From an uncultured virus (IMG/VR IMGVR_UViG_3300027832_000015) (taxonomy: Duplodnaviria; Heunggongvirae; Uroviricota; Caudoviricetes): 64,000 nt of DNA. Location of the stretch: IMG/VR virus record IMGVR_UViG_3300027832_000015. One strand, given 5' to 3'. Position numbers and translations under genes: made by a program. Below are positions 2,330 to 57,100 of this stretch, piece by piece. The number at the start of each line of letters is the position of its first letter. Within the stretch, counting starts at the first letter, position 1. The notes below the pieces were generated by a model, which was not told where the DNA came from, made no database searches, and worked only from the letters and a program-made list of their open reading frames with translations.

Positions 2330-3085
2330 CTAGGCCGCCCAGCCTGCGTTGTAGCCGTACAAAAAGTCGATCTGAGGGACCGCATCCAGTTGTGCTGTCA
2401 TGCGTGTCGCACAGATCGGTGTTCCATGTTCGTTGTACTGGTCGAGCCGTGTGATCACGTTCCCGTAGGCGCGTCCTTCGATCTGGTGTGTCAGGTACAC
2501 CTTCTCGAAAGCGGCACCAGTGAACCAGTGGGTGACCAGCGACTGGGTTGATCCGAAGCGTCCGACTAGGTGGGCGAGGTTGATGGTGCCGAAGTCGGCG
2601 AGGACTGCTGACGCGGCGAGGTCGATGTCGTGGCCCTCCAGCCACATCATTGCCCCTCCACGTCGGAACCATCCTTTCAGATAGTCCCAGATGTTGTCAG
2701 CGCCACCGATCCCCCAGTCCCATTCGCTTTCACGGAACTGTGGGACGGTCACGGTTGGTGTCACGACACCATCAGGTTGGCTGTCTGTTGATGAGAGGAC
2801 GTTGGAATGTGCGATGAGCCGGTCACCCTGTGTGAGAGTCACTACAGTGACCCGTGACGAGTCAATTCGGTTCCGTGTAACAGTCACGGGTTCGTCAGGG
2901 TTCGCCTTGGCGTAGAAGAACGTCGATGTGTTGACTGGTCGTCCATCTTGAGCACCTGAAATTGTGGCCACCGCATGAAGGACTCCACCGAAGACGAACG
3001 GCTTTGCACCTCCTGTCCAGATCGAATGCTTCGACTCGGGATGAAAGTGCTCGTCTTCAGCGGAGTGCGATATGAACGTGCTCAT
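2330..3085 (-). CDS. putative double-hotdog (TesB-like) thioesterase-family protein
   Basis: 251 aa; VFGG-x-L-x-A helix, P-x-x-x-S-x-x-F strand, later LADF; by-eye resemblance only. Confidence 0.5.
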   Translation of the reverse strand: MSTFISHSAEDEHFHPESKHSIWTGGAKPFVFGGVLHAVATISGAQDGRPVNTSTFFYAKANPDEPVTVTRNRIDSSRVTVVTLTQGDRLIAHSNVLSSTDSQPDGVVTPTVTVPQFRESEWDWGIGGADNIWDYLKGWFRRGGAMMWLEGHDIDLAASAVLADFGTINLAHLVGRFGSTQSLVTHWFTGAAFEKVYLTHQIEGRAYGNVITRLDQYNEHGTPICATRMTAQLDAVPQIDFLYGYNAGWAA

Positions 3086-3402
3086 TGATCCCTGTCCATG
3101 GCGTGACCGATGGCTTTCAATATGTACTGTTCGACAGCGGTACTGATCGTGTCGGTGGCTAAAGGCCCGTCGATGGTGGCCACATGGCTCCCATCAGTCG
3201 ACATAATGTTGATGGTGTCTACCCGTAGGCTCCTGATCGTTTCAGCCGATTCTCTCAGCAGATGCGACGTGACGTCCACATGGAAGGTGTTTGCGTCCAT
3301 CACGTCAGCGAGCGCCGTCAAAGTGTCCTCGATCGGTTCGTCACCTACCTCCACCTTGACGACGGATCTCTCGGCAGCCTGACACTCTCTCGGTTGATTC
3401 AT
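3082..3402 (-). CDS. hypothetical protein
   Basis: 106 aa, ATGA-coupled on both sides. Confidence 0.7.
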   Translation of the reverse strand: MNQPRECQAAERSVVKVEVGDEPIEDTLTALADVMDANTFHVDVTSHLLRESAETIRSLRVDTINIMSTDGSHVATIDGPLATDTISTAVEQYILKAIGHAMDRDQ

Positions 3403-3677
3403 GGAGTGAATGATAGCGCAATCGACTGACCTACGTAGACGTTCGATGATCCGTTGTTGAGGGTGATCGTGTCATGGACGGCGTTCTGGATGTTGCCGTT
3501 GCAGTGCTTCTCAACGGTTGACCAGATGGTGGGGTCTTGGTGTGTGACTGTTCCGTATTGGGAGTTGCAGGTGTATGAGTCGAGGGCTTCGATTCGGTTG
3601 AAGATGAATAGGATGGTGAGGAAGGAGGCGGTGAATAGGGCGATGTAGGTGAGGGTGTTGTGGATGCGGTGACTCAT
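3399..3677 (-). CDS. membrane-anchored LysM-like protein (YneA/ChiZ-like architecture)
   Basis: N-terminal hydrophobic helix, then TIWS...V..I.TLN....VYVGQSI LysM pattern. Confidence 0.6.
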   Translation of the reverse strand: MSHRIHNTLTYIALFTASFLTILFIFNRIEALDSYTCNSQYGTVTHQDPTIWSTVEKHCNGNIQNAVHDTITLNNGSSNVYVGQSIALSFTP

Positions 3678-3837
3678 GGTGGTTAGGTTATCGCCTCTTC
3701 GACTCTAACCTTCCAACAGGCGCCATGCTGCTACATGTCTCTCTTATGCCACGACAGTCACCACGACGTCCATAGCTACCCGTGGGCCTCTTGAGCCATC
3801 ACACACGCCACCACGCTCGACACAGGCGCACACAGGG

Positions 3838-3972
3838 CCACACCTGACCCCTCCATCGCACATCAACCCCAGCACACACCGCAGACCCCACACCCCCACC
3901 CCCACACCTGACCCCTCCATCGCACATCAACCCCAGCACACACCGCAGACCCCACACCCCCACCCCCACACC
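3838..3972. repeat. perfect 64-bp tandem duplication (2 copies plus 7 nt)
   Basis: ccacacctgacccctccatcgcacatcaaccccagcacacaccgcagaccccacacccccaccc at 3838 and 3902. Confidence 0.93.
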
Positions 3973-4009
3973 CACAGCCCCGACAAACTTTTTCGATCAC
4001 ACAAACAAC

Positions 4010-4024
4010 CAGCGGGGGCCGCTG
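4010..4024. other. short inverted repeat at the C/A-to-G/T skew switch
   Basis: CAGCGG-GGG-CCGCTG sits where the composition flips. Confidence 0.7.
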
Positions 4025-4139
4025 TGTGGGGTTTTTGTTTTGGGGGGGTTGTGTTTAGTTTTATCTGGGTGGTGTTAGTGGGTGTAGGGGGGTTTGTGTT
4101 TTTTTGTGATGTGGTTCCAGATGTGTTTGATCTATTGTT

Positions 4140-4830
4140 TTATTGTCGTGGGGTTGGTTGTGTGTGGTGTGTTTTGGGGTGGTTGGTTGGGGTTTGTGGG
4201 TTTTGGGGGTTGTGGGGGTGTGGGTGTTTTCGTTGTGGGTGGTGGTGGGGGTGGTGTTTTTTTGTTTGGTCTGGTGGGTGTTGTTTAAATTTGTGGGCGG
4301 TTTTTTGGTGTGTGTGGTGGTTGCGGGTGGTGGGGTTGTACCAGTTTGGTTGGTTGTGGTTGTTGTGGGTTGCCCATGATTGTGTGATGTCGGGGAGGCG
4401 GATGTGGGTGTGTTTGGGTGTTCCCCAGTGGTGGGTGTGGTTGTGGATGATTTGGATGGTTTGGGCGATTGATGCTCCGGGCCAGCCGATGTTGTTGAGT
4501 GTTTGGTTGGTGTGGTTGGCGAGGATGTGGGGCCATGTGTGTTGGTGGTTGAGGGCGTATCCGGCGGTGATTGAGTTTCTTGCGGTGGGGAGGTCGGGGT
4601 TGGTGGTGGAGTTGGTGTCGTGCCAGTTTTGTTGGTTGACGGTGTAGGTGTGGTTGGGGATGGGGGTGTGCCAGTTTTGGCCTTGTGTTGTTTTTGTTCC
4701 GTTTAGATTTGTTTGTATGTGTGGGGGGGGTGAAGTGTTGGTATTGGATGTTTTTGTGGTGTTCTCATGCGGTGTGGTAGTCGAAGTCGATGATTGTTGG
4801 GGTGGTTTGTTTTAGGTATTCGGAGAGCAT
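4140..4830 (-). pseudogene. hypermutated SGNH/GDSL-hydrolase-like pseudogene
   Basis: ATG 4830 after AGGA; in-frame TGA 4767-4765; frameshift near the G8 run 4723-4730; then ARNSITAGYAL...TWPHILA...NNIGWPGAS...LPD, matching SGNH blocks I and II. Confidence 0.75.
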
Positions 4831-4874
4831 GGTTTGTCCTGTGGGTTTTGCCGTCGTGTTGGTTGGGTTTAGAT

Positions 4875-5060
4875 TTATCTGTTCTGTTTGGTTGGTGGGG
4901 GTCCGTGTTCGAGGGCCTCTTCCAGAAGTTTCCCGTCAATTGAAAATGTATTTTTTTCCTTGTTGTATCTTTCGCTGTGGGCGGCGAAAACTATCTCTCC
5001 GTCTTCAACGATGGAGAGTGCGGCGTCGTGGCTCGAATCGTTGATGCCGTAGATCCTCAT
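4875..5060 (-). pseudogene. truncated carbamoyltransferase (NodU/CmcH family, N-terminal 61 aa only)
   Basis: MRIYGINDSSHDAALSIVEDGEIVFAAHSERYNKEKN is the family N-terminus; stop after 61 aa. Confidence 0.85.
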
Positions 5061-5803
5061 CGCGGATCGTCGATATTCCAGTCGGGCGGAATTTTTTGTG
5101 GGTCGACATTTGGGATTTGTTCGGAGGGAATCATGTTTATAATTTCCCTGTAGTTGCTGAATCGTTTCCACCAGTCGTTGGGTAGATTTGGCAGGAGGTT
5201 GTGAATCAGGGTGCGGGCGTGTGGCCAGAATGATGTCATGACGAAACGTTCGCCTGAGGTGACCTCTGTGACTCCATGTAGGTATTGATGTGAGGCCGGG
5301 AACGCGATGAACATTCCGGGTTGTGGCCTGACTTCGATTCCTTGGTGCTCGAAGTAGGTTTGTCCACCTGTGAAGTCGTTGTTGAAGTAGAGCACGGACG
5401 CGATGTCGTATTGGTGGAGGCTGAGCGGGGCGTGTTCGCCCCTGATGGGGCTGAAGATGAGCGTTCCGTCTGAGTGTCCAACATCTGAGTGTGCTGACTG
5501 CTTGTCTCCCTGCACCCATTTACGCATGGCGAAGACGTTTGGTTGGAGAACGGTTTCTCCGAAAAAATCTTCGATGTGTGTTTTGGCTCGGAGGGAGATT
5601 TCCTCAAACAAATCTTGGAGGAAACTCCATTCGTTCTTATCCCTCAGCACGTTGGTGTCTTGTGACCAATGTGAACGCTCTTGGTAGTCTGCTCCTGCTG
5701 GCTGAACCCAAGGACATTCAGTGTTGAAGAAGTGCATGAATGTTCCGCACTCATTCTCTGAGAGGAAATTCGGCGCCACGTAAAGTTGGGGGGCGCTACT
5801 CAT
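5057..5803 (-). CDS. 2OG-Fe(II) oxygenase (prolyl-hydroxylase-like)
   Basis: HSD, SVLYFNNDFTGG, HGVTEVTSGERF motifs. Confidence 0.92.
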   Translation of the reverse strand: MSSAPQLYVAPNFLSENECGTFMHFFNTECPWVQPAGADYQERSHWSQDTNVLRDKNEWSFLQDLFEEISLRAKTHIEDFFGETVLQPNVFAMRKWVQGDKQSAHSDVGHSDGTLIFSPIRGEHAPLSLHQYDIASVLYFNNDFTGGQTYFEHQGIEVRPQPGMFIAFPASHQYLHGVTEVTSGERFVMTSFWPHARTLIHNLLPNLPNDWWKRFSNYREIINMIPSEQIPNVDPQKIPPDWNIDDPR

Positions 5804-5804
5804 G

Positions 5805-6149
5805 TCAGTCGTCTTCTGTTGCGTCGTCTTCTGTTGCGTTTAGGTTGTCATGATAGGAGGCGGCTAGGATTTGCGCCTGACGCTCCATCGTGATTGGGTC
5901 CAAAATCTTGGGGAGGCTCACTTCAAGATGGCCGATAATTTTGTAGGCGATAACGCTGTTCTCGGTGTCGACGTAGTGGGGTTGAAGGAGACGAAGGTAG
6001 TCCCCGTCCCACATGACCACATAGATGCGTGAATCGTCTCCGTCACCAAACTTGAAGGTACACATTTGCGTGTGCATCGCATGCCCGGCGGTGCTTAGTT
6101 CGGAAATTTGGTCGCTGTCGACGGTTGGGATTTCTGTCTCGTCACTCAT
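5805..6149 (-). CDS. hypothetical protein
   Basis: 114 aa in a tightly packed minus-strand run. Confidence 0.7.
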   Translation of the reverse strand: MSDETEIPTVDSDQISELSTAGHAMHTQMCTFKFGDGDDSRIYVVMWDGDYLRLLQPHYVDTENSVIAYKIIGHLEVSLPKILDPITMERQAQILAASYHDNLNATEDDATEDD

Positions 6150-6178
6150 ACTTTTATCCTAGATGATGGTTGTGTTGT

Positions 6179-6763
6179 TCATTGTTGGATAGCATAAAAA
6201 ATTGAAGCAAGTTGATGGATGTATAGGTTCCAACAGTCGGTCCAGAAAACTGTTCCGTTCGTCGGGTCTTGTTGACCGGCTTTCCAGAACTTTTTGTGCC
6301 TATCGAAAATCTGCCTGTTGGCGACTCCGACGACCCATGCCGTGTTGAACCGTTCGATCTCAGAGGAGTTGTTGGCGCTCCGTTGGAGAGAAACGAAGGC
6401 GTAGTAGTCGGCCATTTGATGTTCGTGGTTGTAGGCCGGAAGCGTTGCCTCGTAGTTGGGTCTAGGGGCGACTGTTCGATCTTTTGTTTTGACCTCGATG
6501 GTCTTTTTTTCGAGTTCAGCGTTGGTGATTCCGAGGTCGTGCTTCGTGGTGTACATGGGCTCGAATTGTATTTTGTTGTCCTCAAGTACCCGTTCGGACA
6601 CGATCTCGCCGAGGCATCCGACGATGTTGGCTTCTTCCTTGCGATGTGATCCTCGAAACACCGGGAGGCTTTCAGCCCTTTCGGTAGCCTTTCGATACAT
6701 ATCGGGGGTGATATTGACTTTCAGGAAACTGGTGTTTTGTCTGCCGGGCACGTCTCGTATCAA
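6179..6763 (-). CDS. PD-(D/E)xK restriction-endonuclease-like protein
   Basis: GCLGE...HDL...IEVKTK...DYYAFV pattern. Confidence 0.65.
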   Translation of the reverse strand: MIRDVPGRQNTSFLKVNITPDMYRKATERAESLPVFRGSHRKEEANIVGCLGEIVSERVLEDNKIQFEPMYTTKHDLGITNAELEKKTIEVKTKDRTVAPRPNYEATLPAYNHEHQMADYYAFVSLQRSANNSSEIERFNTAWVVGVANRQIFDRHKKFWKAGQQDPTNGTVFWTDCWNLYIHQLASIFYAIQQ

Positions 6764-6778
6764 CCATACGCAGATCCG

Positions 6779-7504
6779 TCAACGGTTGTTTTGTTCTGAA
6801 GCGAACTGTCCTGTCGTGAGGGCGTAGGGCGGATTGTCGATATGCCATACATTGACCACGATGACCTGCTTGATGCCAGACTCGATCGGAGTCGTCTCAT
6901 GGAGGCGGTGGCCAGCGTCGAATACGACAAGCCGGTCGGGTTTGCACGCGATCCGTTCCCGACGCTCGATCGGAGAGATCAAAGATGCGGTGTTTTCCTC
7001 TTCGAGTCTCATCGAGCCTTCATCGATGCCGTGTTCGTGAATCTCAAGAAACGACCCTGTTGATTCGCTGAATCCGTACCAGACGCAGCCGATCCTCGGA
7101 CCTTGGAACCATTGAGTGTCCGCGTACAGAAATGTGTCTTCGTCGACGTGCCTAGCAAGAAATTGGCCGTGAACGAAGGTGCGAACCCAGTATTCGAAGC
7201 CTGCCACTTCCTCTTCTGGGAAGGGTAGAAGTCCTGTATCCCGCCATATTTTCTCGATGAGGCGTTGCCGGTTGGTTTGGGCGGGGGATTCCCACCATCC
7301 TGACCAGAAAGCGTATGGCGCGTAGCAGTCAGATTGTTCTGAGTGAAATTCGTTGAGAGTCTTCCCTATGTTTTCTCCGGGCATTTCCGGAGGGAAGAAT
7401 GATTGATCTTCTCGTATCGGGTGTTCAAGGTCTGTTCCGGATACGAAATTATCAAAAACGAATAGGGTCATTTGTTGAAGATGGTGACCAGTCGCGCCCG
7501 CCAA
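6779..7504 (-). CDS. 2OG-Fe(II) oxygenase-like protein
   Basis: GFEYW...HVDED...RLVVFD...LHET; start may be the internal Met of MTLFVFD. Confidence 0.75.
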   Translation of the reverse strand: MAGATGHHLQQMTLFVFDNFVSGTDLEHPIREDQSFFPPEMPGENIGKTLNEFHSEQSDCYAPYAFWSGWWESPAQTNRQRLIEKIWRDTGLLPFPEEEVAGFEYWVRTFVHGQFLARHVDEDTFLYADTQWFQGPRIGCVWYGFSESTGSFLEIHEHGIDEGSMRLEEENTASLISPIERRERIACKPDRLVVFDAGHRLHETTPIESGIKQVIVVNVWHIDNPPYALTTGQFASEQNNR

Positions 7505-8846: not shown

Positions 8847-10772
8847 ATGGCCCTGCTCGCAGAGGAATTCCTAGCCTCGTACGCCTCAAAGTCGCCTCCA
8901 TGGGGGTTCAATGGGATGGGGGAAATTGTTTACCTCCGCACCTACAGTCGCCCCAAAGGTGATGGAACCAGCGAAACATGGCCAGAAACGGTTCAACGAG
9001 TCATTGAAGGCGCCGTTGAAATCGGTGTTCCGTACACTCAGAAGCAAGCCGAAGCTCTCTTCGATCACATGTTCAATCTGCGATGTTCTTTCTCGGGTAG
9101 GGCGTTATGGCAGTTGGGAACTCCACTCGTTAAGGCGTTTAACGCAGCGTCGCTGAACAACTGTTACTTCGTGAACATCGAGAAGGTGGAAGATTTTGAG
9201 TTCCTTTTCGATCATCTGATGCTTGGTGGTGGAGTCGGATTCTCCGTCGAGCGTGCAAAGATTCACGAGTTGCCTAAAGTCAAGGCGTCAGTCGAAATCA
9301 CCAATGAGCGAAGCGACGATGCGGACATCATCGTTCCCGACAGTAGGCAGGGGTGGTCTCGTCTCGTCCATTCGGTTTTGAAGTCCTACTTCTATACGGG
9401 CAAGTCGTTCTCTTACTCTACGATCCTCATTCGCGAGTATGGGGCTCCACTGAAGACGTTTGGTGGCACCGCGAGCGGCCCGGGCGCCCTCATTGATGGC
9501 ATCGTAGATATCTGCAAGGTGATGGACGCGCGAGTGGGGAAGAAGTTGCGTTCCGTTGACGTCCTCGACATCTGCAACATCATTGGTCGCATTGTCGTCT
9601 CTGGCTCTAGTCGTCGTTCTGCACAGATCGCTATCGGTGACCCCGATGACGTCCTTTTTTTGCGTGCCAAGAACTGGTCTAGCGGTTCCGTTCCTGCGTG
9701 GCGAGCAAACTCGAACAACTCGGTTTATGCGGACTCTTGGGACGAGATCATCCCCGAGGTTTGGAAGGGTTACGACGGTTCTGGCGAGCCTTACGGTTTC
9801 GTGAATCGCAAGTTGGCCCGTCAATACGGGCGCCTTGGACATAAGAAGCCAGATCCGACCATCGAGGGATACAACCCCTGCGCTGAGATTGCTCTCGGCG
9901 ATGGAGAGTCTTGCAACTTGTCAACGATCTTCTTGCCGAAAATCGATTCGTTGGCTCAGTTCCGCGAGGTTTCTGAACTTCTCTACATGTGTCAGAAGCA
10001 GATCACACGGATGGATTACCCGTATGAGAAGACAACGAAGATTGTGTCGAAGAACGCCCGTTTGGGTCAGTCTGTCACTGGAATTTTGCAGTGCTCAGAG
10101 AAGCAACTGTCGTGGCTTGATCCGGTCTACGAGTATCTTGAGGGTCTCGACGAGAAATATTCGGAAGAGCACGGTTTCCCGAAGTCTGTCCGTCTGACAA
10201 CAGTTCAGCCTTCTGGCACGTTGGCTCTTCTTCCCGGAGTCACTCCCGGGGTTCATCCCGCTTACTCCCAGCATTACATCCGTCGTGTTCGGTTTGGTTC
10301 GTCTGATCCGCTCGTTGATTCGTGCCGTAAGCGTGGCTATACGGTCAGGTGGGACGTCGGCATTGACGGGCGAGAGGATCACACTCGCTACGTTGTGGAG
10401 TTCCCCTGCGAGTCGCCGGAGGGCGCTGTCTTGGCCGCAGATATGACTGCTGTGGAGCAGTTGGAGTGGGTGAAGAAGATGCAGACCGACTGGGCCGATA
10501 ATGCCGTTTCGGTAACAGTCTATTACCGGCTTGAAGAGTTGCCGGAAATTAAGCAGTGGATGTCAGAGAACTACACGAATGTCCTGAAGTCGGTGTCATT
10601 TTTGCTTCACGCTGACCACAACTTCCCGTTGCCTCCTTACGAGGAATGCACGAAGGAAGAGTACGAGAAGATGCTGGCCAAGATCGATTTCTCGGTTCCA
10701 TTGGTCCAGTCGACATTTACGGATGAATTGATGATCGATGACTGCGCCACCGGAGCGTGCCCCATCAAGTAG
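8847..10772 (+). CDS. nrdJ: class II (adenosylcobalamin-dependent) ribonucleoside-triphosphate reductase
   Basis: LRTYSR, GGGVGF, RRSAQIA, NPCAEI...CNL, TVQPSGT, C-terminal CATGACPIK. Confidence 0.96.
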   Translation: MALLAEEFLASYASKSPPWGFNGMGEIVYLRTYSRPKGDGTSETWPETVQRVIEGAVEIGVPYTQKQAEALFDHMFNLRCSFSGRALWQLGTPLVKAFNAASLNNCYFVNIEKVEDFEFLFDHLMLGGGVGFSVERAKIHELPKVKASVEITNERSDDADIIVPDSRQGWSRLVHSVLKSYFYTGKSFSYSTILIREYGAPLKTFGGTASGPGALIDGIVDICKVMDARVGKKLRSVDVLDICNIIGRIVVSGSSRRSAQIAIGDPDDVLFLRAKNWSSGSVPAWRANSNNSVYADSWDEIIPEVWKGYDGSGEPYGFVNRKLARQYGRLGHKKPDPTIEGYNPCAEIALGDGESCNLSTIFLPKIDSLAQFREVSELLYMCQKQITRMDYPYEKTTKIVSKNARLGQSVTGILQCSEKQLSWLDPVYEYLEGLDEKYSEEHGFPKSVRLTTVQPSGTLALLPGVTPGVHPAYSQHYIRRVRFGSSDPLVDSCRKRGYTVRWDVGIDGREDHTRYVVEFPCESPEGAVLAADMTAVEQLEWVKKMQTDWADNAVSVTVYYRLEELPEIKQWMSENYTNVLKSVSFLLHADHNFPLPPYEECTKEEYEKMLAKIDFSVPLVQSTFTDELMIDDCATGACPIK

Positions 10773-10992: not shown

Positions 10993-11351
10993 GGCTTGAC
11001 ACCGAAATAGTTCGTTGCGTGCCCTGAATCTACGAGTTGTTCGTTTAGGGAAATCTCGCATTTTTCGTCGGCGTAGATGTTGGCAAGAAGACGACCGTAT
11101 TTGCCTTTTCCGTCTTTGAATGTCTGGACGAAACAGTCCTTGGTCCGGTCGAACCAGTCCTCGACGTAGGCTTTTGCGGCAAGGCCTAGTTCTTTTTCGG
11201 CAAGATTTTTGGTTCTGATCTCAGGGGTATTGATGCCGTACAGTCGGCACCTGACTTTGTGGTGAATGTTGAAACCTAAATCGATGGTCAGATCTACTGT
11301 GTCACCATCGACAACTCGTTGGAGTTTTGCTTTGTAGGTGTACAGGTTCAT
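10989..11351 (-). CDS. thermonuclease (SNase family)
   Basis: RVVDGDT, RLYGINTPE, GKYGRLLA motifs. Confidence 0.95.
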   Translation of the reverse strand: MNLYTYKAKLQRVVDGDTVDLTIDLGFNIHHKVRCRLYGINTPEIRTKNLAEKELGLAAKAYVEDWFDRTKDCFVQTFKDGKGKYGRLLANIYADEKCEISLNEQLVDSGHATNYFGVKP

Positions 11352-37154: not shown

Positions 37155-39152
37155 CTATTTACGTAAACGCCATGCCCGTCGTGCCTCGGCTTCAGCGACC
37201 TTGGAAGGAGAATTAGCCAGAAGATTTACAAAATGGCTAGTGACGGATGCTTTTACAACCGTATTCCTGATCTCGGGAGAAGAAATTCCGTACGAGGAAC
37301 GAATTTCCATTGTCAATTCTTCTCGCGACTGATCGACGATTGACCTGATTCGACCAAGAGCGGCATTCGCTGCCACGACCATTTCTTCGCTGAAGTTGAC
37401 AGACTTGCCTTCCATATTTTCCTTCATGATCGCCATAAGTACAGGACGAATGTCTTCGTCATATTGCTTGTACCAAACATCTGCTGGCATGAACATGTCG
37501 ACATCGAGAGTTCCTTCGAGCAACGCCTTCCTGCACTTCGACCCGGAAGCCTTCTCGATGACCACCCTTTGCTGACGCTCCATCAACCGCTCAATGCTTC
37601 GTTCAAGAATCTGAGTCCAACGCTCAAGCCCTTGTTCTTCCGCGACCTTGATTTCAATATTTTTGAATGCCGGGTCCGCCAATTGACCGTCCGGCTGTGC
37701 GGCAACAGCCGCTTGAGGTGACCCCTGCTCCGACGCCATTGATCCCTGCATCGTATTTGGATCCAATGGCGGCTGGTTCTGTGCAGCGACTTCACCCACC
37801 CCGCCCATCTCTGGGTCGCCGGACTGTTCTCCGCCCGGGTCGGCACCCGGAGGCATCCCGGGAACTCCCGGCTGAGGCCCGCCCATCTGCATCTCTGGCT
37901 TGGGCATTTCCTTTTCGGTATTGGCAACTGGCGTCAAGTTGGGGTTCATGAGCAGCGAGTCAGCAAGATCAGACTTGACCTTCTTCTTCCCTGTTGCCGT
38001 GCGGTATTCGTTGGGGCTAATGAGGCCCTGCTGGAGTTCCTGAAGCAAATACTGCTCTCGCTCCTGCTTGTAGATCACGAGGATCGGCACTTCACTGGTG
38101 TCGAAATCGATGTAATGCTCATCGTCGAGTTCATCCAGCGACCGGGCAAGCGGCTCCAAGTGCGGCATCATGGTTTCGATCCAGAAGACGCGGATTTCCT
38201 CTGCGGCATTCGAGAAAGTCCTGCCAGAAGCATTACCGATAACGGACTCCGGCACGCCGAAGGAGGCAAGGATCTCCTCCTTGGTTATTTGGCGCATCTG
38301 GATATAGGAAGCATCACGAGGGTTCGAAGATGTGTCCACGTAATCGACGCCATCTTCGGACGCGATTACCGTGGTTCCACCAACGCGACCAAGGTTTCCG
38401 CGGAAGCGGTTCGCAAGTTCTGCCTTGTCGTCCTCGTCAATGTCCCCCTTGAGGACCAGCAGGCCACCCGGACGTCCATCGTTGAGCAGGTAGTTCCGGT
38501 TGTAAAGTTTCGCCAAGTTCTCAATCTCGATAGCAACACCAGCGGATTCCATCGGAGTCAAGGAAAGGTATGGGTCAAGTGGGTGCGGTTTCCTGACCCA
38601 AATAACTTCACTAGGGGGAAGTATGATCTTGTCACCGCTTGGCATCGAAACCTCGTACCCGGAGACGAATGTCTTCGGGTCGGGGATGGGTGCCGTGTGC
38701 TGTGGCGGCAGGAGGTTGATGCCAATAATTCGCCCATCACGACCGCGAACTTTTTCGATAAAGGCCCCACGGCTACTCATCAGCAATTGCGACGACAAGC
38801 GGTAACGGAAAGCGAACGAATTTTCACCAATATTGCTCTTGACGTTCAGTAAATCAAGGACCGAGGAGTTTTTCGCCTTAGATTTGGTGACGATTTCGCC
38901 TTCGGGGTCATTGTTTTTACGTAGCACTACCGGCAGCCGGGCTTGGTTTCCGGCGATCGCATCAATACACCGAGACACCCATACGACTTTCGCCATACCT
39001 TCTCGGTACGCCCGCTCGATGTCCCACGAATCTCGATACGCCCTGCCTGCAAAGTTGACGTTATTGGCGACAGGTGCCCCCACGCCAACTTTGGCAGCCT
39101 TGCTCGCCGAGTTTCCACCAAGCGACTTATTCTCCGTTGAGTTCCATGCCAT
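37155..39152 (-). CDS. HK97-family portal protein with Pro/Gly-rich and helical C-terminal extension
   Basis: VSRCIDAIA...LP, NDGRPGG, EILASFGVPESVIG, ISPNEYR motifs. Confidence 0.94.
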   Translation of the reverse strand: MAWNSTENKSLGGNSASKAAKVGVGAPVANNVNFAGRAYRDSWDIERAYREGMAKVVWVSRCIDAIAGNQARLPVVLRKNNDPEGEIVTKSKAKNSSVLDLLNVKSNIGENSFAFRYRLSSQLLMSSRGAFIEKVRGRDGRIIGINLLPPQHTAPIPDPKTFVSGYEVSMPSGDKIILPPSEVIWVRKPHPLDPYLSLTPMESAGVAIEIENLAKLYNRNYLLNDGRPGGLLVLKGDIDEDDKAELANRFRGNLGRVGGTTVIASEDGVDYVDTSSNPRDASYIQMRQITKEEILASFGVPESVIGNASGRTFSNAAEEIRVFWIETMMPHLEPLARSLDELDDEHYIDFDTSEVPILVIYKQEREQYLLQELQQGLISPNEYRTATGKKKVKSDLADSLLMNPNLTPVANTEKEMPKPEMQMGGPQPGVPGMPPGADPGGEQSGDPEMGGVGEVAAQNQPPLDPNTMQGSMASEQGSPQAAVAAQPDGQLADPAFKNIEIKVAEEQGLERWTQILERSIERLMERQQRVVIEKASGSKCRKALLEGTLDVDMFMPADVWYKQYDEDIRPVLMAIMKENMEGKSVNFSEEMVVAANAALGRIRSIVDQSREELTMEIRSSYGISSPEIRNTVVKASVTSHFVNLLANSPSKVAEAEARRAWRLRK

Positions 39153-39433: not shown

Positions 39434-41866
39434 ATGGCCGAACCAGACTGGGGCAAGGTTCTGGAATACCTAGAACCCAAGAAGCCCCAATACTGCCCAG
39501 AAGAAGCATCGTTGACACAGAAGGTGTTCCTGCGGACATACGCCCTTGAGGCGTTTTTTGGCGGAGCAGCTGGTGGTGGGAAAGCTGTTTCGGTAGACAC
39601 ACCCATACCCACACCCGAAGGTTTCAAACCAATCAAGGACATCCACCCCGGCGACGAAATCTTTGGCCTAGACGGTAAACCATACTACGTCCTAGCCGAG
39701 TCTGAGATACACAAGAAGCCGACGTACCGTCTAACCTTTGACGACGGGTCCAGTGTCGCCGCCGCTGACGACCATGAATGGCTCACATACGACGCCAAAG
39801 ACATGGAAAGGCTCACCAAAGGAACCGACGAATACAGAGCTACCCGTAGAGCTACAAGAGAATCACGGGCCACTATGTCCCAAGGCCCCCGTAAATCGCT
39901 AGCCGTAGCCGAACGAAACAGGGTGGAATCCGCTAAGAATATCAAACCGCAACCTACCGGCAGCATCCGTACCACACAAGAAATTGTGGACACGCTCACG
40001 GTCCGCGGCGGGCGAGCTAACCACGCTATCCCTGTAGCCGCAGCTATCCAAACCCCACACGTAGACCTACCCATCGACCCCTACACGCTAGGGGCGTGGC
40101 TTGGAGACGGCTACTCTTCTGCTGGATCGATATGTGGCGAAGACCCTGAAATATGGGATGAGTGCCCATACGCAATCAAGTCTGTACGCCACCCCATTAC
40201 AGACAACGCCAACTATGCCATAGTCCTGTTTGACGGCTTAAGAACACTTCTACGAACTAATAACCTCCTCAACAACAAGCATATTCCTCACGCTTACCTG
40301 TGGGCCTCTGAAGAACAACGTGTCGCAATACTCCAAGGCCTCATGGACACTGACGGAAACGTGAATGGAGCTAGCGTCGAATTCGTAAACACAAACAAAA
40401 ACTTGGTAGAAGGCGTGGCGCATCTTGCACGCTCACTCGGAATGAAAGTTAATGTTCGAGAAGGACAGTCCACCCTTTACGGTATTGTAAAGGGACTCAA
40501 ATGGACGGTAAAGTTTGCTGCCAACAGGACTGTGTTCAAACTGGCACGAAAGGCCAACACGCAGAAAATTGCTGCACGCCGCACAAACAGGTTCCGCTAC
40601 ATCAAGGGTGTCGAACTTCTTGGGGACACCAACGTCAAATGTATCAAAGTTTCGTCCCCCGACAACCTGTTCCTATGCGACGAGCACTTTATCCCAACAC
40701 ACAATTCGTCGGCCCTTCTGATGGCTGCCCTTCAGTACGTCGACGTTCCGGGCTACAGCGCGATTCTCTTCCGTCGAACGTACGCCGACCTCGCTCTCCC
40801 CGGAGCCATCATGGACCGTTTTCAGTCGTGGCTCGCGAATGAAGAGGATGTCAGGTGGAACGCCAACAATTACACGGCGACCTTTCCTAGTGGTGCCCGC
40901 ATCACCTTCGGCTATCTAAACAATGTGAACGATTATTTACGCTATAAGGGATCAGAGTTTCAGTTTATTGGGGTGGACGAGGTGACGGAAATCAGGGAAT
41001 CTGATTACCGGTACCTATTCTCTCGCCTCCGTCGCCCGGCGAGCGGCCCGCTGGCAAAGGTTCCGCTGAGGATGAGGGCGGCATCAAACCCTGCTCCCAA
41101 CTGGGTCCGTCAACGGTTCATCGTTGAGGGAATGGCAGCTGGGAGAATTTTTGTCCCATCGAAACTTACCGACAACCCGGGAATTGACGCAGAGTCGTAC
41201 CGTCAGTCACTGAGTGAGCTTGATCCCGTCGAGCGACGTCGGCTAGAAGAGGGCGATTGGTGGTCGACGACCCTTGGCTCGCTGTTCGAGAGGGAGAGTA
41301 TCGTCCTGCTGGACCCTCACGAAGTGCCAGAAATTACGTCGGCGGCAAGGGCTGTTCGTTTTTGGGACTTGGCGGCATCGGAGCCATCTCCCTCTTATCC
41401 TGATCCGGACTGGACGGTCGGAACCTTGATGCTTTTCGATAAAGGGATCGCCCATATTTTGGATGTCCAGAGGGCGAGGGTGAAGGGCGAGAAGGTCGAG
41501 CAGCTGATCGCCCAGACCGCATACGAGGATGGTCACGCCGTTGCGATCAGGATGGAGCAGGAGCCGGGTTCGGCGGGCAAGGCGCTGGTGGATCAGTACG
41601 CCCGATATGTGCTTTCCGGTTTCGACTTTGGGGGGATTCGCTCGACGGGAGATAAATTGACTCGCGCTCGTCCGTTTGCTGCCGCGGTTGCAAATGGGAA
41701 CGTGCGCTGTGTAAGATCAGTGTGGCTGACGGATTGGCTTGACGAATTGTCATCCTTTCCTGAAGCCGCGAACCACGACGACCAAGTCGACTCCGCTGTC
41801 GGCGCTTTTACATTTTTAACCGGATTGGGTTTGCCTCAGCGGAAAAGAATCGCTATAGTCGTCTAG
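39434..41866 (+). CDS. terL: terminase large subunit (intein-interrupted)
   Basis: Walker A GGAAGGGK|S, Walker B FIGVDEV, ASNP, nuclease WDLA...EQEPG...HDDQVDS. Confidence 0.96.
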   Translation: MAEPDWGKVLEYLEPKKPQYCPEEASLTQKVFLRTYALEAFFGGAAGGGKAVSVDTPIPTPEGFKPIKDIHPGDEIFGLDGKPYYVLAESEIHKKPTYRLTFDDGSSVAAADDHEWLTYDAKDMERLTKGTDEYRATRRATRESRATMSQGPRKSLAVAERNRVESAKNIKPQPTGSIRTTQEIVDTLTVRGGRANHAIPVAAAIQTPHVDLPIDPYTLGAWLGDGYSSAGSICGEDPEIWDECPYAIKSVRHPITDNANYAIVLFDGLRTLLRTNNLLNNKHIPHAYLWASEEQRVAILQGLMDTDGNVNGASVEFVNTNKNLVEGVAHLARSLGMKVNVREGQSTLYGIVKGLKWTVKFAANRTVFKLARKANTQKIAARRTNRFRYIKGVELLGDTNVKCIKVSSPDNLFLCDEHFIPTHNSSALLMAALQYVDVPGYSAILFRRTYADLALPGAIMDRFQSWLANEEDVRWNANNYTATFPSGARITFGYLNNVNDYLRYKGSEFQFIGVDEVTEIRESDYRYLFSRLRRPASGPLAKVPLRMRAASNPAPNWVRQRFIVEGMAAGRIFVPSKLTDNPGIDAESYRQSLSELDPVERRRLEEGDWWSTTLGSLFERESIVLLDPHEVPEITSAARAVRFWDLAASEPSPSYPDPDWTVGTLMLFDKGIAHILDVQRARVKGEKVEQLIAQTAYEDGHAVAIRMEQEPGSAGKALVDQYARYVLSGFDFGGIRSTGDKLTRARPFAAAVANGNVRCVRSVWLTDWLDELSSFPEAANHDDQVDSAVGAFTFLTGLGLPQRKRIAIVV
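39584..40705 (+). mobile_element. 374-aa Ala-start (class 3-type) intein with LAGLIDADG homing endonuclease
   Basis: Starts AVSVDTPIPTPEG, ends PTHN before Ser; DHEW, VKCIKV, PTHN give the Trp/Cys/Thr triad; LGAWLGDG and LQGLMDTDG. Confidence 0.93.
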
Positions 41867-54192: not shown

Positions 54193-57100
54193 ATGGCTGA
54201 TGCAAGTCTAGTAATCAAGATTAGTGCGACTGGTGAACGCAACCTCAAGTCGATCCGTAGAGACCTTGACAGGATTAGCGCCTCCGCTGTAACTACTTCT
54301 GCAGCCCTGCAGGCTTTCGCCCGGAGTTACAACGACGCTTGGGACAAACACCTCAAGAACGTCGAAAAGAACTTCACACGGCACTTCGACGACCTCGATC
54401 GGATGGTCTCAATGGCCGGTGGCACGCTGCTGAAAGGGCTCGGCTTGGCGCTCAAGGCAACCGCTGCCGAGTTTGTCCTAATGGGCGCATCAATGCTTGG
54501 TGTTCACGCACTGTTTGCTACCGGCAACTGGTTGATGAAGGGTTACCGGGGGGCAATGGCCCTGTTGGCTGGAGCGGCAGCGTCGACTGCCGTGGCTCTT
54601 GCTTCTGTGGCGGCCGCAATCCGCGAACAGAGCGCCGCAATGTACGCTTACAAGGCGACCGGATACAAGCAGTTTGGAGACAACCTGAATCGCGTCCGTG
54701 TAGTTATGCGCGGTCTAGAAACAGATACCCGTTTCGCTTCCGTTGGGGTGGAGAACTTAAACGCAGCGTACGCAGCAGTCTCCCAGAGGTCGACGTTCAC
54801 GGCAGGTTCTCAGGGCCTACTGAGTGGTCTTATGGACTTTGCTTCAGCAGGTCAGCCATTAGAGCAAGGGGTCAAGGCCGCTGGCCAATTGATCGGCATT
54901 CTCCAAGATCCAAAAGCATCGTTTAGCGAGATAACCAAATCCGCTGAAGCGCTTGGTCCAGCCATGCAGAAGGCGATGAAGGAAGCTGAGAAGCAAGGCA
55001 TCAACACCGCAACTGAACTGAAGAAAGCAATCAACGACGGCACGCTCGTTTCGATGGGTGGCGTTGAAGGCCAGTTCGATGCAGTAAACGGAACTCTCGT
55101 GAGCATCATGAAGGGCGGCTTCAACCAAATTCGCTCAATGTTTGCTGATATGGGTCAACCTTTCCTCAAGCCGTTGAAGGAGGCTGCTGACGAGATCCTT
55201 GTCATCTTCAAGCGCACGTTCATGCGGCTACGGGGTGACCTTGGCAAGTTCGGCACGGGATCGTTTATCACCTCGCTTGTGAGTATGTCCGAGAAACTCG
55301 AAAATGTGTTCGTGAAGTTGATCCGTGATTACTTGCCTCAGGTTATCGGAATGTTCGGCAGGTGGTCCGATAAGTGGGATTCTTTCACAAATGGATGGAA
55401 CAGGCTTCTCGACGGGATGCGGCCACTTATAGATGGGGCGAAAGTTCTTGAAGGTGTTCTAAAGAACATCTTCGGTCCTGTCTGGACCCAAATTAAAGAA
55501 AAGTTTGGCTCTTTCAACGACCAGCTTAAGGAGAACGAACCTCAACTTTTATCATTCGGTACTGCTCTGGGTGACATGCTTGTCTCCTTTAGCAAAGTGA
55601 CCGACAAGATGCGCGAGCTTTTCTTCACGGCGCTTCCATTCATCACCAAAATGCTTGAAGGCGTCAAGCAGATCACGGATCTCCTCGGCACGATGCTCGG
55701 TTCTATGGGGAAAATTTTTGGTGGTAAGGGTGACGGTTTTGGTGCTTTTGGAATGTTGATGGGCCTCGGCCTTATCGGCCGTTCAATGAAAAACACTAAA
55801 GGCGGATTTGTTCAGAAATCGATGGTTTCGAGCATGAACGTTCAAGCAAATCAAGTTACCGTCACGGGCGCAACTGCAGGTGGGCAAATGTATCCGGGTG
55901 CAGCAACATCTCAGCAAGCGTTTAATACACCCTATGGTCCGGGTCGCACTGTTGGCGGGCTGGGTGGTGGTGCTGGATCTGGATTTTTGTCCGCAAGAAA
56001 TGGTCCGACATCTAATTATTACCCACCCGGATCTTTAGGTGGACCTATTAGTCACCGCGCTGGAGTGGCTCAGGGTATGTCCTCGGGGCAAGTTGCTGCC
56101 TATAACAAAGGTACCCGTGCGGCAGCGGCGGCACAGGCTCCGATGACCTCTTCCGGCATGACGGGTTTGCCAAGCCGATTGCAACAGTTCAGTGGCTCTA
56201 GAGGCCCCCGGGCCATGCGCAACAACTCTAAAATGTACGGCAATTTTAGTAAATACAATAACTCTGCAAGTGGAAAAATGGGAACGATGGTTGGTCTCGG
56301 CCTGCTCAGTTCCGTAATGCCGGAAGAGACACAAGGCGCAATGTCCTTAGGGGCCAGTCTTGCAGTGATCAATCCTGCCCTCGGTCTTGGCGTTGCAGGC
56401 ATCGGTACCGCCATGACTTCAAAGAATGCAGCTGTCGGCGTCGGCGGCGGTGTTGTTGGTGGAGCAGCATTGGGGATGATGGTCGCTGGCCCTGTGGGTG
56501 CTGCTGTTGGTGGAATTCTTGGTGGAGTACTCGGCGGGATTAAGGCCAACAGCAACAAGCACAATGCTATGAGGGAAGAGGCTCGCGAACAGGGTCGTAG
56601 CGCAAGTAAGCAAATTCTTGAAGGGCTGATGACGGGTATAAGCGATGCGTCTAAAAACGACGACATCAAAGCGTTCACATCGGAAAATTTGGGCGAGACG
56701 CTCGGTTTGAATCTGCTGGATGATGCGGTGAAGGATTCGTTCGACTTCCAGAAGCAGAATGGTTTGAGATCGCATGAGCAGCGTCAGGCTCTTGTTGAAA
56801 AACTTTACGCGCAACGCGACGTTCTCGGATTCGAGATGTCTGAAGAAGAAAAGAAAAAAGCACTTGAGAAGCCAAACGAATTTTTGGAAACGATCAATAA
56901 AGAGTTGGCTCCGACGTTTGAAGCGGCAACTGAAATCACCAACAAATTCGAGTCACGAATGGACTTGTTCACGTCTTCTCTTCGCATGACAGAAGAGGAA
57001 GTGATGAGGCTTGCTCAGACCACTGGCGTGAACCTTTACGATGCCGCACAAAATACCGGAGACATGATAAAGCAACTTGCTGACGGGCTGATTACTTCAA

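Follow-up and report, generated by a model that had tools for sequence, protein, structure and literature searches.

A decayed SGNH-like esterase gene in a strand-skewed tract of an uncultured phage, and possible causes of the skew

The skewed tract and the esterase-like gene in it

The stretch of 64,000 nucleotides (nt) analysed here, hereafter the window, belongs to an uncultured Caudoviricetes virus (IMG/VR record IMGVR_UViG_3300027832_000015). At positions 4140–4830 it holds a tract rich in G and T, which on the minus strand reads as the remains of an SGNH/GDSL-like esterase gene. The plus strand of the tract contains 313 G, 275 T, 52 A and 51 C, a G+T fraction of 0.851, against a mean of 0.514 (standard deviation 0.031, maximum 0.601) in 608 other 691-nt segments of the same 64 kb. 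In segments of 200 nt the sole outliers of the 64 kb are 3701–4000, with G+T of 0.19–0.31, and 4001–4900, with 0.80–0.92. GC skew ranges from +0.55 to +0.85 and AT skew from -0.57 to -0.81 over 881 nt. The point near 4015 where the skew changes sign is called the flip below. The features in question are as follows.

4020–4900, plus strand: G/T-rich arm with 387 G, 366 T, 64 A and 64 C (G+T 0.855)
3701–4000, plus strand: C/A-rich arm, mirror image of the right arm (A+C 0.74; 0.81 in 3801–4000)
4140–4830, minus strand: predicted SGNH/GDSL-like esterase pseudogene, third paralogue of a phage-specific family (ATG 4830–4828, frame stop 4142–4140)
4010–4024, no strand assigned: hairpin CAGCGGGGGCCGCTG at the sign change of the skew, terminator-like on the minus strand, then a T-rich run on the plus strand
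3979–3999, no strand assigned: motif CCCGACAAACTTTTTCGATCA beside the flip, with the counterpart CCCGAAAAACTTTTTGGCTCA in the relative L004

The centre of the flip is kept in three lineages, as hairpin plus the minus-strand motif GAAAAAGTTT..CGGG, aligned with L004 and G003. L004 (also G002) is a relative ~71% identical in the flanks of the fossil locus, and G003 is a complete relative genome of 137 kb. No gene was recognised in the C/A-rich arm at 3701–4000; the relatives have a DUF5872-like gene at the same position.

The same tract was recovered from several sources. It is 100% identical across 6 kb to G001 (also L002), a 155,887-bp record, 98% complete, that comes from another metagenome than the window, and over 1129 aligned bases it differs by one gap and by 0 mismatches from L007, a contig of 1,231 bp obtained from a third metagenome. 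In Logan contigs from four runs, each of a different study and one perhaps the source itself, 0 other letters occur in the tract. The sole variation among these contigs lies in a few indels in low-depth contigs and in the copy number of a perfect 64-nt tandem repeat (3838–3965), present twice in the window and once in the third assembly and in the contigs of the three other runs. Low-complexity G/T sequence is error-prone in principle, and surplus low-complexity contigs stack at 3840–4241 at the 85% likeness setting. Independent assemblies, and contigs from runs of four separate studies, nevertheless give the identical sequence, which argues that the tract is no artefact of assembly or base calling, the doubt raised in an earlier note made from the letters of this DNA. 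The diverged orthologues moreover have the codon-position structure expected of real genes, and we give the artefact practically no credence.

By sequence comparison, the minus strand of 4140–4830 is a pseudogene of an SGNH/GDSL-like esterase. The earlier note had read the tract in this way, and intact orthologues were found in three related phage lineages, which keep the gene: at 10169–11011 in L004 (280 amino acids, aa), at 103136–104017 in G003, and as P0001 (291 aa) and P0002 (293 aa). The L004 orthologue is 84.6% identical to the fossil at the DNA level and lies at the same place in the same orientation. All intact orthologues have TGG where the fossil has the nonsense codon TGA (4767–4765), the origin that had been proposed for this codon. 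They likewise have AGDSITAG where the fossil has ARNSITAG, its GDS being changed to RNS at 4580–4572 (AGA AAC TCA). The fossil also carries a +1 frameshift inside a run of eight C (4730–4723) and deletions of ~150 nt in its 3' third, and its C-terminal DxxH block is gone. The residues GDS had been anticipated correctly; the codons had been given as GGA GAC TCA, but the orthologues have GGC GAC AGC (L004) and GGC GAC TCA (G003). T, H, N, P, Q and K together account for 161 of the 223 residues in the minus-strand frame 4811–4143, in line with the described dominance of His, Asn, Gln, Thr and Pro. The decay does grow toward 4020, as stated there: G+T peaks at 0.90–0.92 in 4101–4400, and only the 5' 590 columns align reliably.

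The catalytic serine (4574–4572) and a second conserved serine (4471–4469) are encoded by AGC in L004 and by TCA in the window and G003. A switch between these codon families needs several steps and so implies that serine was selected for over a long part of the divergence.

Several observations are consistent with SGNH family membership of the ancestral gene, which we hold with moderate confidence. Pfam Lipase_GDSL_2 matches an intact orthologue in block I only (E 6.6e-4; 20.7 bits, below the cut-off of 32.9), and a family profile search with the window's fossil returned 0 families. Seven weak hits came from a profile search of the PDB, every one of them a GDSL/SGNH entry (E 0.023–0.73). P0002 was modelled from a 10-sequence alignment (pLDDT 73, pTM 0.76); Foldseek placed the GDSL protein 4rsh_A first (E 4e-4), followed by TesA entries, CE2 esterases and PAF acetylhydrolases, at a TM score by target of ~0.45. 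What we take to be block V, which like block I is named here on the presumed family motifs, reads DNNH before PG..H..IAE in P0002 and G003 and NNNH in P0001; the segment is deleted in L004 and absent from the window. The intact orthologues thus share with Escherichia coli TesA and GDSL lipolytic proteins (1ivn, 4rsh) the GDS of block I, the DxxH of block V and the predicted fold. They differ from them in that the Pfam match stays below threshold, in that two SGNH-like paralogues of the esterase have GCS instead of GDS (tandem paralogues in L004 are 27–32% identical as proteins), and in that the window's copy is dead. The family is also rare and phage-specific; searches of 5.8 billion proteins found 3 homologues, one of them the window's fossil, and 5 homologues.

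With a composition of practically two letters, 4020–4900 keeps long open frames on either strand, among them one of 207 aa on the plus strand (4024–4647), which gene-calling programs would list as proteins rich in Gly/Val/Trp/Cys or in Thr/His/Pro. A practical warning follows, as skewed tracts give long spurious reading frames on both strands, including Thr/His/Asn/Pro/Gln-rich 'proteins'.

Silent sites and the direction of change

In L004, G+T at codon positions 1, 2 and 3 is 0.25, 0.27 and 0.07 in the orthologue of the fossil (SGNH3) and 0.34, 0.34 and 0.06 in an HNH endonuclease gene beside it; third positions of neighbouring genes have 0.34–0.42. The third-position values in G003 are ~0.05 for SGNH3 and 0.07 for the HNH gene. 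This codon pattern of the intact orthologues is the one that purifying selection produces when it opposes a mutation or fixation bias at saturation. In the fossil the three values are 0.18, 0.17 and 0.08, a sign of relaxed selection. Comparison of the lineages shows the bias to be older than the death of the gene and, as judged from these compositions, to predate the split of the three phage lineages.

The intact copies in relatives make it possible to tell which way the bases changed. Where just one of the three lineages (window, L004 and G003) deviates at a base, the change was credited to its branch; 590 columns aligned reliably enough for this count. On the coding strand, the window branch has 8 G>A, 10 T>C, 4 G>C and 1 T>A changes, that is, 23 toward A/C and 0 in reverse. 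Exchanges between A and C on this branch also number 23, and are without direction (11 C>A, 12 A>C). The L004 branch has 4 changes toward A/C and 11 away, the G003 branch 6 and 10. A two-way comparison of window and L004 over 808 nt gives 29 v 2 for G>A, 20 v 4 for T>C, 9 v 3 for G>C and 9 v 2 for T>A. At a second island, described below, the related loci L029 and L044 differ by 126 transitions and 48 transversions (C>G or A>T on the gaining strand) in the favoured direction, against 15 and 3 in reverse; transversions make up 48 of these 174 directional changes, about 28%. All four keto (G, T) to amino (A, C) substitution types are affected, whereas A<->C exchanges are undirected.

The earlier note had described the spectrum as G>A plus T>C on the coding strand. 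These transitions do give the net direction and form the largest class, with 18 of the 23 window-branch changes, but the transversions (5 of 23, and 48 of 174 in the second island) are one-sided as well. By our estimate, roughly one in four of the C>G transversions could be due to double hits. No motif was seen in the sequence context of the 23 window-branch changes, a sample too small to judge by. The note had further supposed that a local, directional process erases genes at this site. The process is local, directional and tied to ~4015; the intact orthologues, however, have long been under the same bias without net loss on their own branches, so the bias alone does not erase genes. The window's copy lost its function first and drifted afterwards, its remaining coding-strand G and T now being replaced.

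Single-stranded exposure of the plus strand to the right of 4015 and of the minus strand to the left, with spontaneous or enzymatic deamination (C>U, A>hypoxanthine), would account for the largest directional class (18 of 23 in the window branch, 126 of 174 between L029 and L044), and its polarity, by derivation, matches the template of the lagging strand where replication starts in both directions. With about 28% transversions, pure deamination is insufficient: C>G and A>T, at 22–28% of the directional changes and 6- to 20-fold commoner than the reverse, are not direct products of deamination. Deamination of the 3' tails left by break resection was rejected, as resection exposes the other strand and, by derivation, predicts the opposite polarity. 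Among 178 crude open reading frame calls in G001, neither a deaminase nor a DNA polymerase was found at E<=1e-5. The earlier note had expected polymorphism of the same spectrum in reads; the contigs of the four runs, in which rare variants and molecule ends are not visible, show no such variants. Polymerase errors of the G.T type, moreover, give the same two transitions on an actinobacterial leading strand, according to one study (PMC6159521). We consider deamination of exposed single strands an unlikely cause.

Neighbouring genes and related islands

The accessory locus around the fossil is collapsing in the window's lineage, by a 3.3-kb deletion, by loss of the HNH gene, and by nonsense mutation, frameshift and deletions in the esterase gene. 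In L004 the order is intact carbamoyltransferase, two SGNH-like paralogues, the orthologue of the fossil, HNH gene, flip and DUF5872-like gene, and G003 has the same order minus the second paralogue. The segment 6892–10161 of L004 (3,269 nt, the remaining carbamoyltransferase and the two paralogues) is missing between 4912 and 4838 of the window. The neighbours of the fossil in the window are listed here.

4875–5060, minus strand: carbamoyltransferase stump of 61 codons, the first ~55 homologous
4025–4084, minus strand: site of the lost HNH endonuclease gene, ~78 nt against 556 nt in L004, the last HNH codons still alignable
5057–5803, minus strand: intact 2OG-Fe(II) oxygenase gene, 1.0–1.8 kb from the flip, brought 3.3 kb closer by the deletion
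3399–3677, minus strand: first intact gene past the island, 92 aa, conserved in L004 and G003

The HNH gene, at 11082–11594 in L004 (Pfam HNH_3 2.1e-10, phrog_826 1.1e-43) and present also in G003, is free-standing and occurs in some and not others of otherwise collinear genomes, as expected of its predicted product, a homing endonuclease. A protein-level search of 3600–4300 of the window for remnants of the DUF5872-like and HNH genes gave a best tblastn E of 0.12, and none was accepted. The oxygenase gene at 5057–5803 shows a partial shift of the same sign, with 89 G/T->A/C differences from L004 against 49 in reverse. A further junction near 3690, from G/T to A/C, was set aside: the 5' part of the gene at 3677–3399 has third-position G+T of 0.08 and 0.00, probably by preference for C-ending codons in a segment rich in Phe, Ile, Leu and Thr.

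Beside the fossil lie genes for SGNH-like esterases, for a carbamoyltransferase and for two 2OG-Fe(II) oxygenases, of which one matches Tet_JBP weakly (4878–7504 in the window; 6001–10187 in L004). They resemble a DNA base-modification cluster, presumably akin to the TET systems of phages. A clear Tet_JBP oxygenase is encoded at 37,983–38,963 of G001, and G004 has a skew island over a 2OG oxygenase and a DNA methyltransferase.

A second, larger island was found at ~139.3 kb of G001 (136.8–144.6 kb), in the stretch from whiB to a helicase-loader-like gene, an O-like/DnaD-like initiator gene lying beside it. On its plus strand, the 3' part of an exonuclease gene, an HslV-like peptidase gene and the WhiB gene go from a third-position G+T of 0.40 to 0.00; within the exonuclease gene alone this fall spans 2.5 to 1.3 kb from the flip, and the relatives have 0.4–0.5. 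The helicase-loader-like gene past this flip lies on the minus strand and has third-position G+T of 0.12 on its coding strand. The polarity is the same as in the first island. Among 21 related loci (the L025–L045 set), 13 have the initiator-side island at the same syntenic place (WhiB third-position G+T <=0.20), while 8 have WhiB values of 0.40–0.60 and no island but keep the same genes. L029 and L044 share 86% identity in the exonuclease gene, and their flips lie 100–250 nt apart. One small ribbon-helix-helix-like gene is found in opposite skews in the two (11,085–11,545 in L029, 11,207–11,665 in L044), with 106 v 10 and 68 v 8 directional differences.

Adjacent pairs of islands in G001, G003 and G004 run from A/C to G/T in 6 of 6 cases, which represent 3–4 syntenic loci only. 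Because this order is invariant under reverse complementation, the polarity is real. We describe a skew island as ~1–1.5 kb on each side of a fixed point in which substitutions have a strong bias, the strand that runs 5'->3' away from the point becoming G+T and its complement A+C. Skewed patches inside long genes (G001 132,451–132,950; G003 9,051–9,450; G004 54,201–54,550) were rejected as islands, as they have no third-position bias and look like low-complexity protein segments.

The DUF5872-like gene directly past the hairpin is coded on the same strand as the genes that precede it, and its third positions have a G+T of 0.85 (L004) and 0.94 (G003). As the sign of the skew switches and gene orientation stays constant, transcription of the flanking genes is excluded as a simple cause. 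In a wider version, flips would be places where transcripts converge on a two-way terminator, with the template strands gaining G/T through repair patches, or with selection for A/C-rich unstructured RNA. The terminator-like hairpin at the window's flip fits this version, as do the converging genes of the second island with coding strands A/C-rich on both sides, the mildly A/C-rich third positions of coding strands genome-wide, and a skew that climbs toward the 3' end of the upstream gene string. Constant orientation across the flip of L004 and G003, with opposite values of 0.05 and 0.85–0.94, and likewise at ~4,600 in G001, would however need strong antisense transcripts, which nothing shows. 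Classical transcription-associated deamination also targets the non-template strand, which is the wrong sign, and no RNA run was found with the window's DNA. We regard a transcription-linked cause as improbable. A scan of 3300–5300 for sigma-70 promoters found 1 site against 1.2 expected, away from the flip.

Selection or biased conversion could favour the G/T-rich strand itself, as an initiation zone prone to R-loops or quadruplexes or as a protein-binding array. The bias does follow the product base and not the source base, with all coding-strand changes that yield A/C favoured and A<->C neutral, and the motifs at the flip are conserved. Identity between window and L004 is 83.5–84.6% in the tract and 69–74% in the flanking genes, but high identity is expected in a two-letter alphabet. 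The displacement of the flip between L029 and L044 with wholesale recoding, the missing islands in 8 of the 21 related loci that keep the same genes, and the spread of islands over unrelated genes all speak against selection on the strand itself, to which we assign a slightly lower probability again than to transcription.

The islands might also be a foreign mosaic, made of cassettes imported from donors with extreme strand composition. Sharp edges at gene ends, the accessory and rare nature of the genes involved and the HNH homing endonuclease would agree with import. It does not account for the core exonuclease gene, which grades into the island inside its own frame, for orthologues at the same syntenic site that are skewed in some lineages and not in others, for opposite skews of the same gene in L029 and L044, or for the 2OG gene that shifted after the deletion. 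Database and contig searches found no donor, and we consider imported cassettes very unlikely.

A further flip lies at ~4.6 kb of G001, between a VRR-NUC-like nuclease gene and a helix-turn-helix gene that precedes a large terminase gene. This part of G001 may be another phage's. The window is itself composite: its positions 1–950 equal G001 1–950, and 951–64000, the first 63,050 bases of the IMG/VR virus record, are identical to G001 42,072–105,121, not contiguous with the former in G001. G001 has two terminase/portal/capsid sets and two recombinase modules (ERF, SSB and Gam at 30–32 kb; Rad52, PD-(D/E)XK and RuvC at 83–86 kb), and may be a chimera or have a 41-kb extra segment inside. A WhiB gene and the sources of the relatives point to a phage of freshwater actinobacteria. 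BLAST of 3000–6000 of the window against GenBank phages gave no match, and scans of viral contigs with the 2OG oxygenase, esterase and carbamoyltransferase found only two lineages besides the window's own; the one scan of a metagenome added two short contigs. A large terminase gene of the window (39434–41866, plus strand) is split by a LAGLIDADG homing-endonuclease domain in an intein-like manner. The 141-nt terminal repeat of G003 was not used for placing physical ends, and may reflect assembler overlap only.

Possible DNA synthesis at the flips, and known skewed systems

The explanation that we tentatively prefer, though we would put it at less than an even chance, is that flip points are recurrent start sites of outward DNA synthesis with uncorrected G/T-type mispairs. 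Synthesis would start repeatedly at the flip and run outward, either from an origin-like site or by repair at a recurrent break. The strand made outward would collect G and T through uncorrected G.T, T.G, G.G and T.T mispairs, and part of the two transitions may come in addition from deamination of the parental strand that is displaced, a process of like polarity. By derivation, the strand that gains G/T would correspond, at a two-way origin, both to the newly made leading strand and to the template of the lagging strand, and at a repaired double-strand break to the fill-in or copy strand. The four directional types would pass through keto:keto mismatches on one choice of strand and through amino:amino mismatches on the other, and A<->C through mixed ones, a fit that is partly definitional. 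In G003 the cumulative skew, with islands masked, has its minimum within ~1.5 kb of the initiator-side flip. As no phage DNA polymerase was found among the crude frame calls of G001, the host replisome is probably used, recruited by the phage initiator and loader. At the window's own flip, break repair or a secondary origin may be involved. An HNH endonuclease gene lies 60–100 nt from the flip in L004 and G003, a break-site context. An origin would be marked by an initiator gene or binding repeats, an unwinding element, a turning point of the genome-wide skew and measured initiation; the window's flip has the 64-nt tandem repeat, the hairpin and the conserved motif.

Several observations weigh against outward synthesis from the flips. 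The available contigs show no molecule ends, and nothing directly marks any flip as an origin, nick or break. Near the window's flip there is no replication gene, and the genome-wide skew does not turn there. The second island is interrupted by genes of ordinary composition, among them the initiator gene, only 0.6–1 kb from the flip. Genes converge there, and an origin at that place would have all genes head-on to the forks; as the skew minimum coincides with this convergence, the origin signal and gene orientation are confounded. Symmetric replication, furthermore, should yield no net skew unless leading- and lagging-strand errors differ. Some island edges are sharp (<150 nt) and at gene ends, a pattern more in keeping with the swapping of gene cassettes or tracts than with a gradual fading over distance; at one gene boundary in G003, third-position G+T goes from 0.40 to 0.08 within 150 nt, other edges being graded. 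Finally, the spectra come from coding DNA of 78–86% identity, and are blurred by selection and multiple hits.

Intense and correlated GC and TA skews are known from the elements named GRINS (PNAS 2021, PMC8256042). Their mechanism is given there as unknown, and the authors suggest error-prone copying of tautomeric bases, with C>T and A>G changes. GRINS are described there as commonest in Actinobacteria, with 15% of the actinobacterial ones overlapping endonuclease genes; phages are mentioned, and so are single-copy skewed regions. The definition asks for >500 bp, mean absolute GC and TA skews >0.15, and a duplicate of >80% DNA identity in the cluster or genome. The tract has the length and the skews, which share their sign on each arm and are strongest at third positions in the intact orthologues, but each of the two records searched, its own and the 155,887-bp one, has a single match to it. 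Without a duplicate of >80% it is not a GRINS by definition, and corresponds to the single-copy skewed regions of the paper. The likeness lies in positively correlated GC and TA skews over 0.5–1.5 kb, in the abrupt change from G+T to C+A within 1 kb, in the emphasis on third positions in genes that still encode working proteins, and in the enrichment of Pro, Thr, His and Gln in the negative arm. The tract differs in that it lies in a phage genome and not in a biosynthetic cluster, and in that the phage skew is arranged around fixed flips with one polarity, one of them beside initiator genes. The phage pseudogene and its intact orthologues also allow changes to be counted, and the transversions among them are not predicted by the tautomer idea. 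Judged by title and the start of the abstract, none of five papers that name GRINS together with nucleotide skews is on phages, and the full name together with 'phage' was found only in the GRINS paper; no relevant paper joining GRINS and NucS was found.

In vertebrate mitochondria, C>T and A>G changes on the heavy strand are graded with single-stranded time and raise its G+T, so that genes on the other strand have hardly any G or T at third positions. In the phage, too, these two transitions raise the G+T of one strand. The phage pattern, in contrast, is local (~1 kb) and flips internally, and about a quarter of its directional changes are transversions (5 of 23 and 48 of 174), where the mitochondrial type has C>T and A>G only. 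The one-sided transversions thus argue against both pure deamination and a tautomer-only process, each of which gives transitions only, and the counts point to a keto/amino class effect.

In a study of Corynebacterium glutamicum (Takemoto et al. 2018, PMC6159521), the leading strand in wild type shows C>T 67 v 40 and A>G 48 v 13, attributed by the authors to G.T mispairs made in leading-strand synthesis and to a strand bias of the NucS/EndoMS enzyme. This enzyme cuts G/T, G/G and T/T mismatches only. As in the phage, the leading strand gains G and T there, and the keto:keto mismatches of the enzyme are the intermediates of the four directional types in the phage. The bacterial effect differs in being genome-wide and less than two- to four-fold, compared with at least ten-fold within ~1 kb in the phage. 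One may speculate, with less confidence than we attach to deamination, that skew islands, and by extension GRINS, are the footprint of one strand-asymmetric step in the DNA metabolism of actinobacteria, in which the outward strand keeps NucS-type mispairs at fixed synthesis starts, be it an origin beside the initiator genes or repair where a homing endonuclease or another agent breaks the DNA. The mispairs would persist since synthesis escapes NucS, or since NucS cuts and re-repairs repeatedly. If true, this would explain the keto/amino sorting, the two transversions, the polarity around a point, and the prevalence in Actinobacteria and their phages.

The phage family offers a simpler system for GRINS-like skews, being single-copy and syntenic, with a sign switch at a point and lineages that range from no skew to saturation. 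If the flips are starts of DNA synthesis, the skew could locate origins or break sites in the genomes of uncultured phages, and nucS mutants would then offer a test of what causes GRINS.

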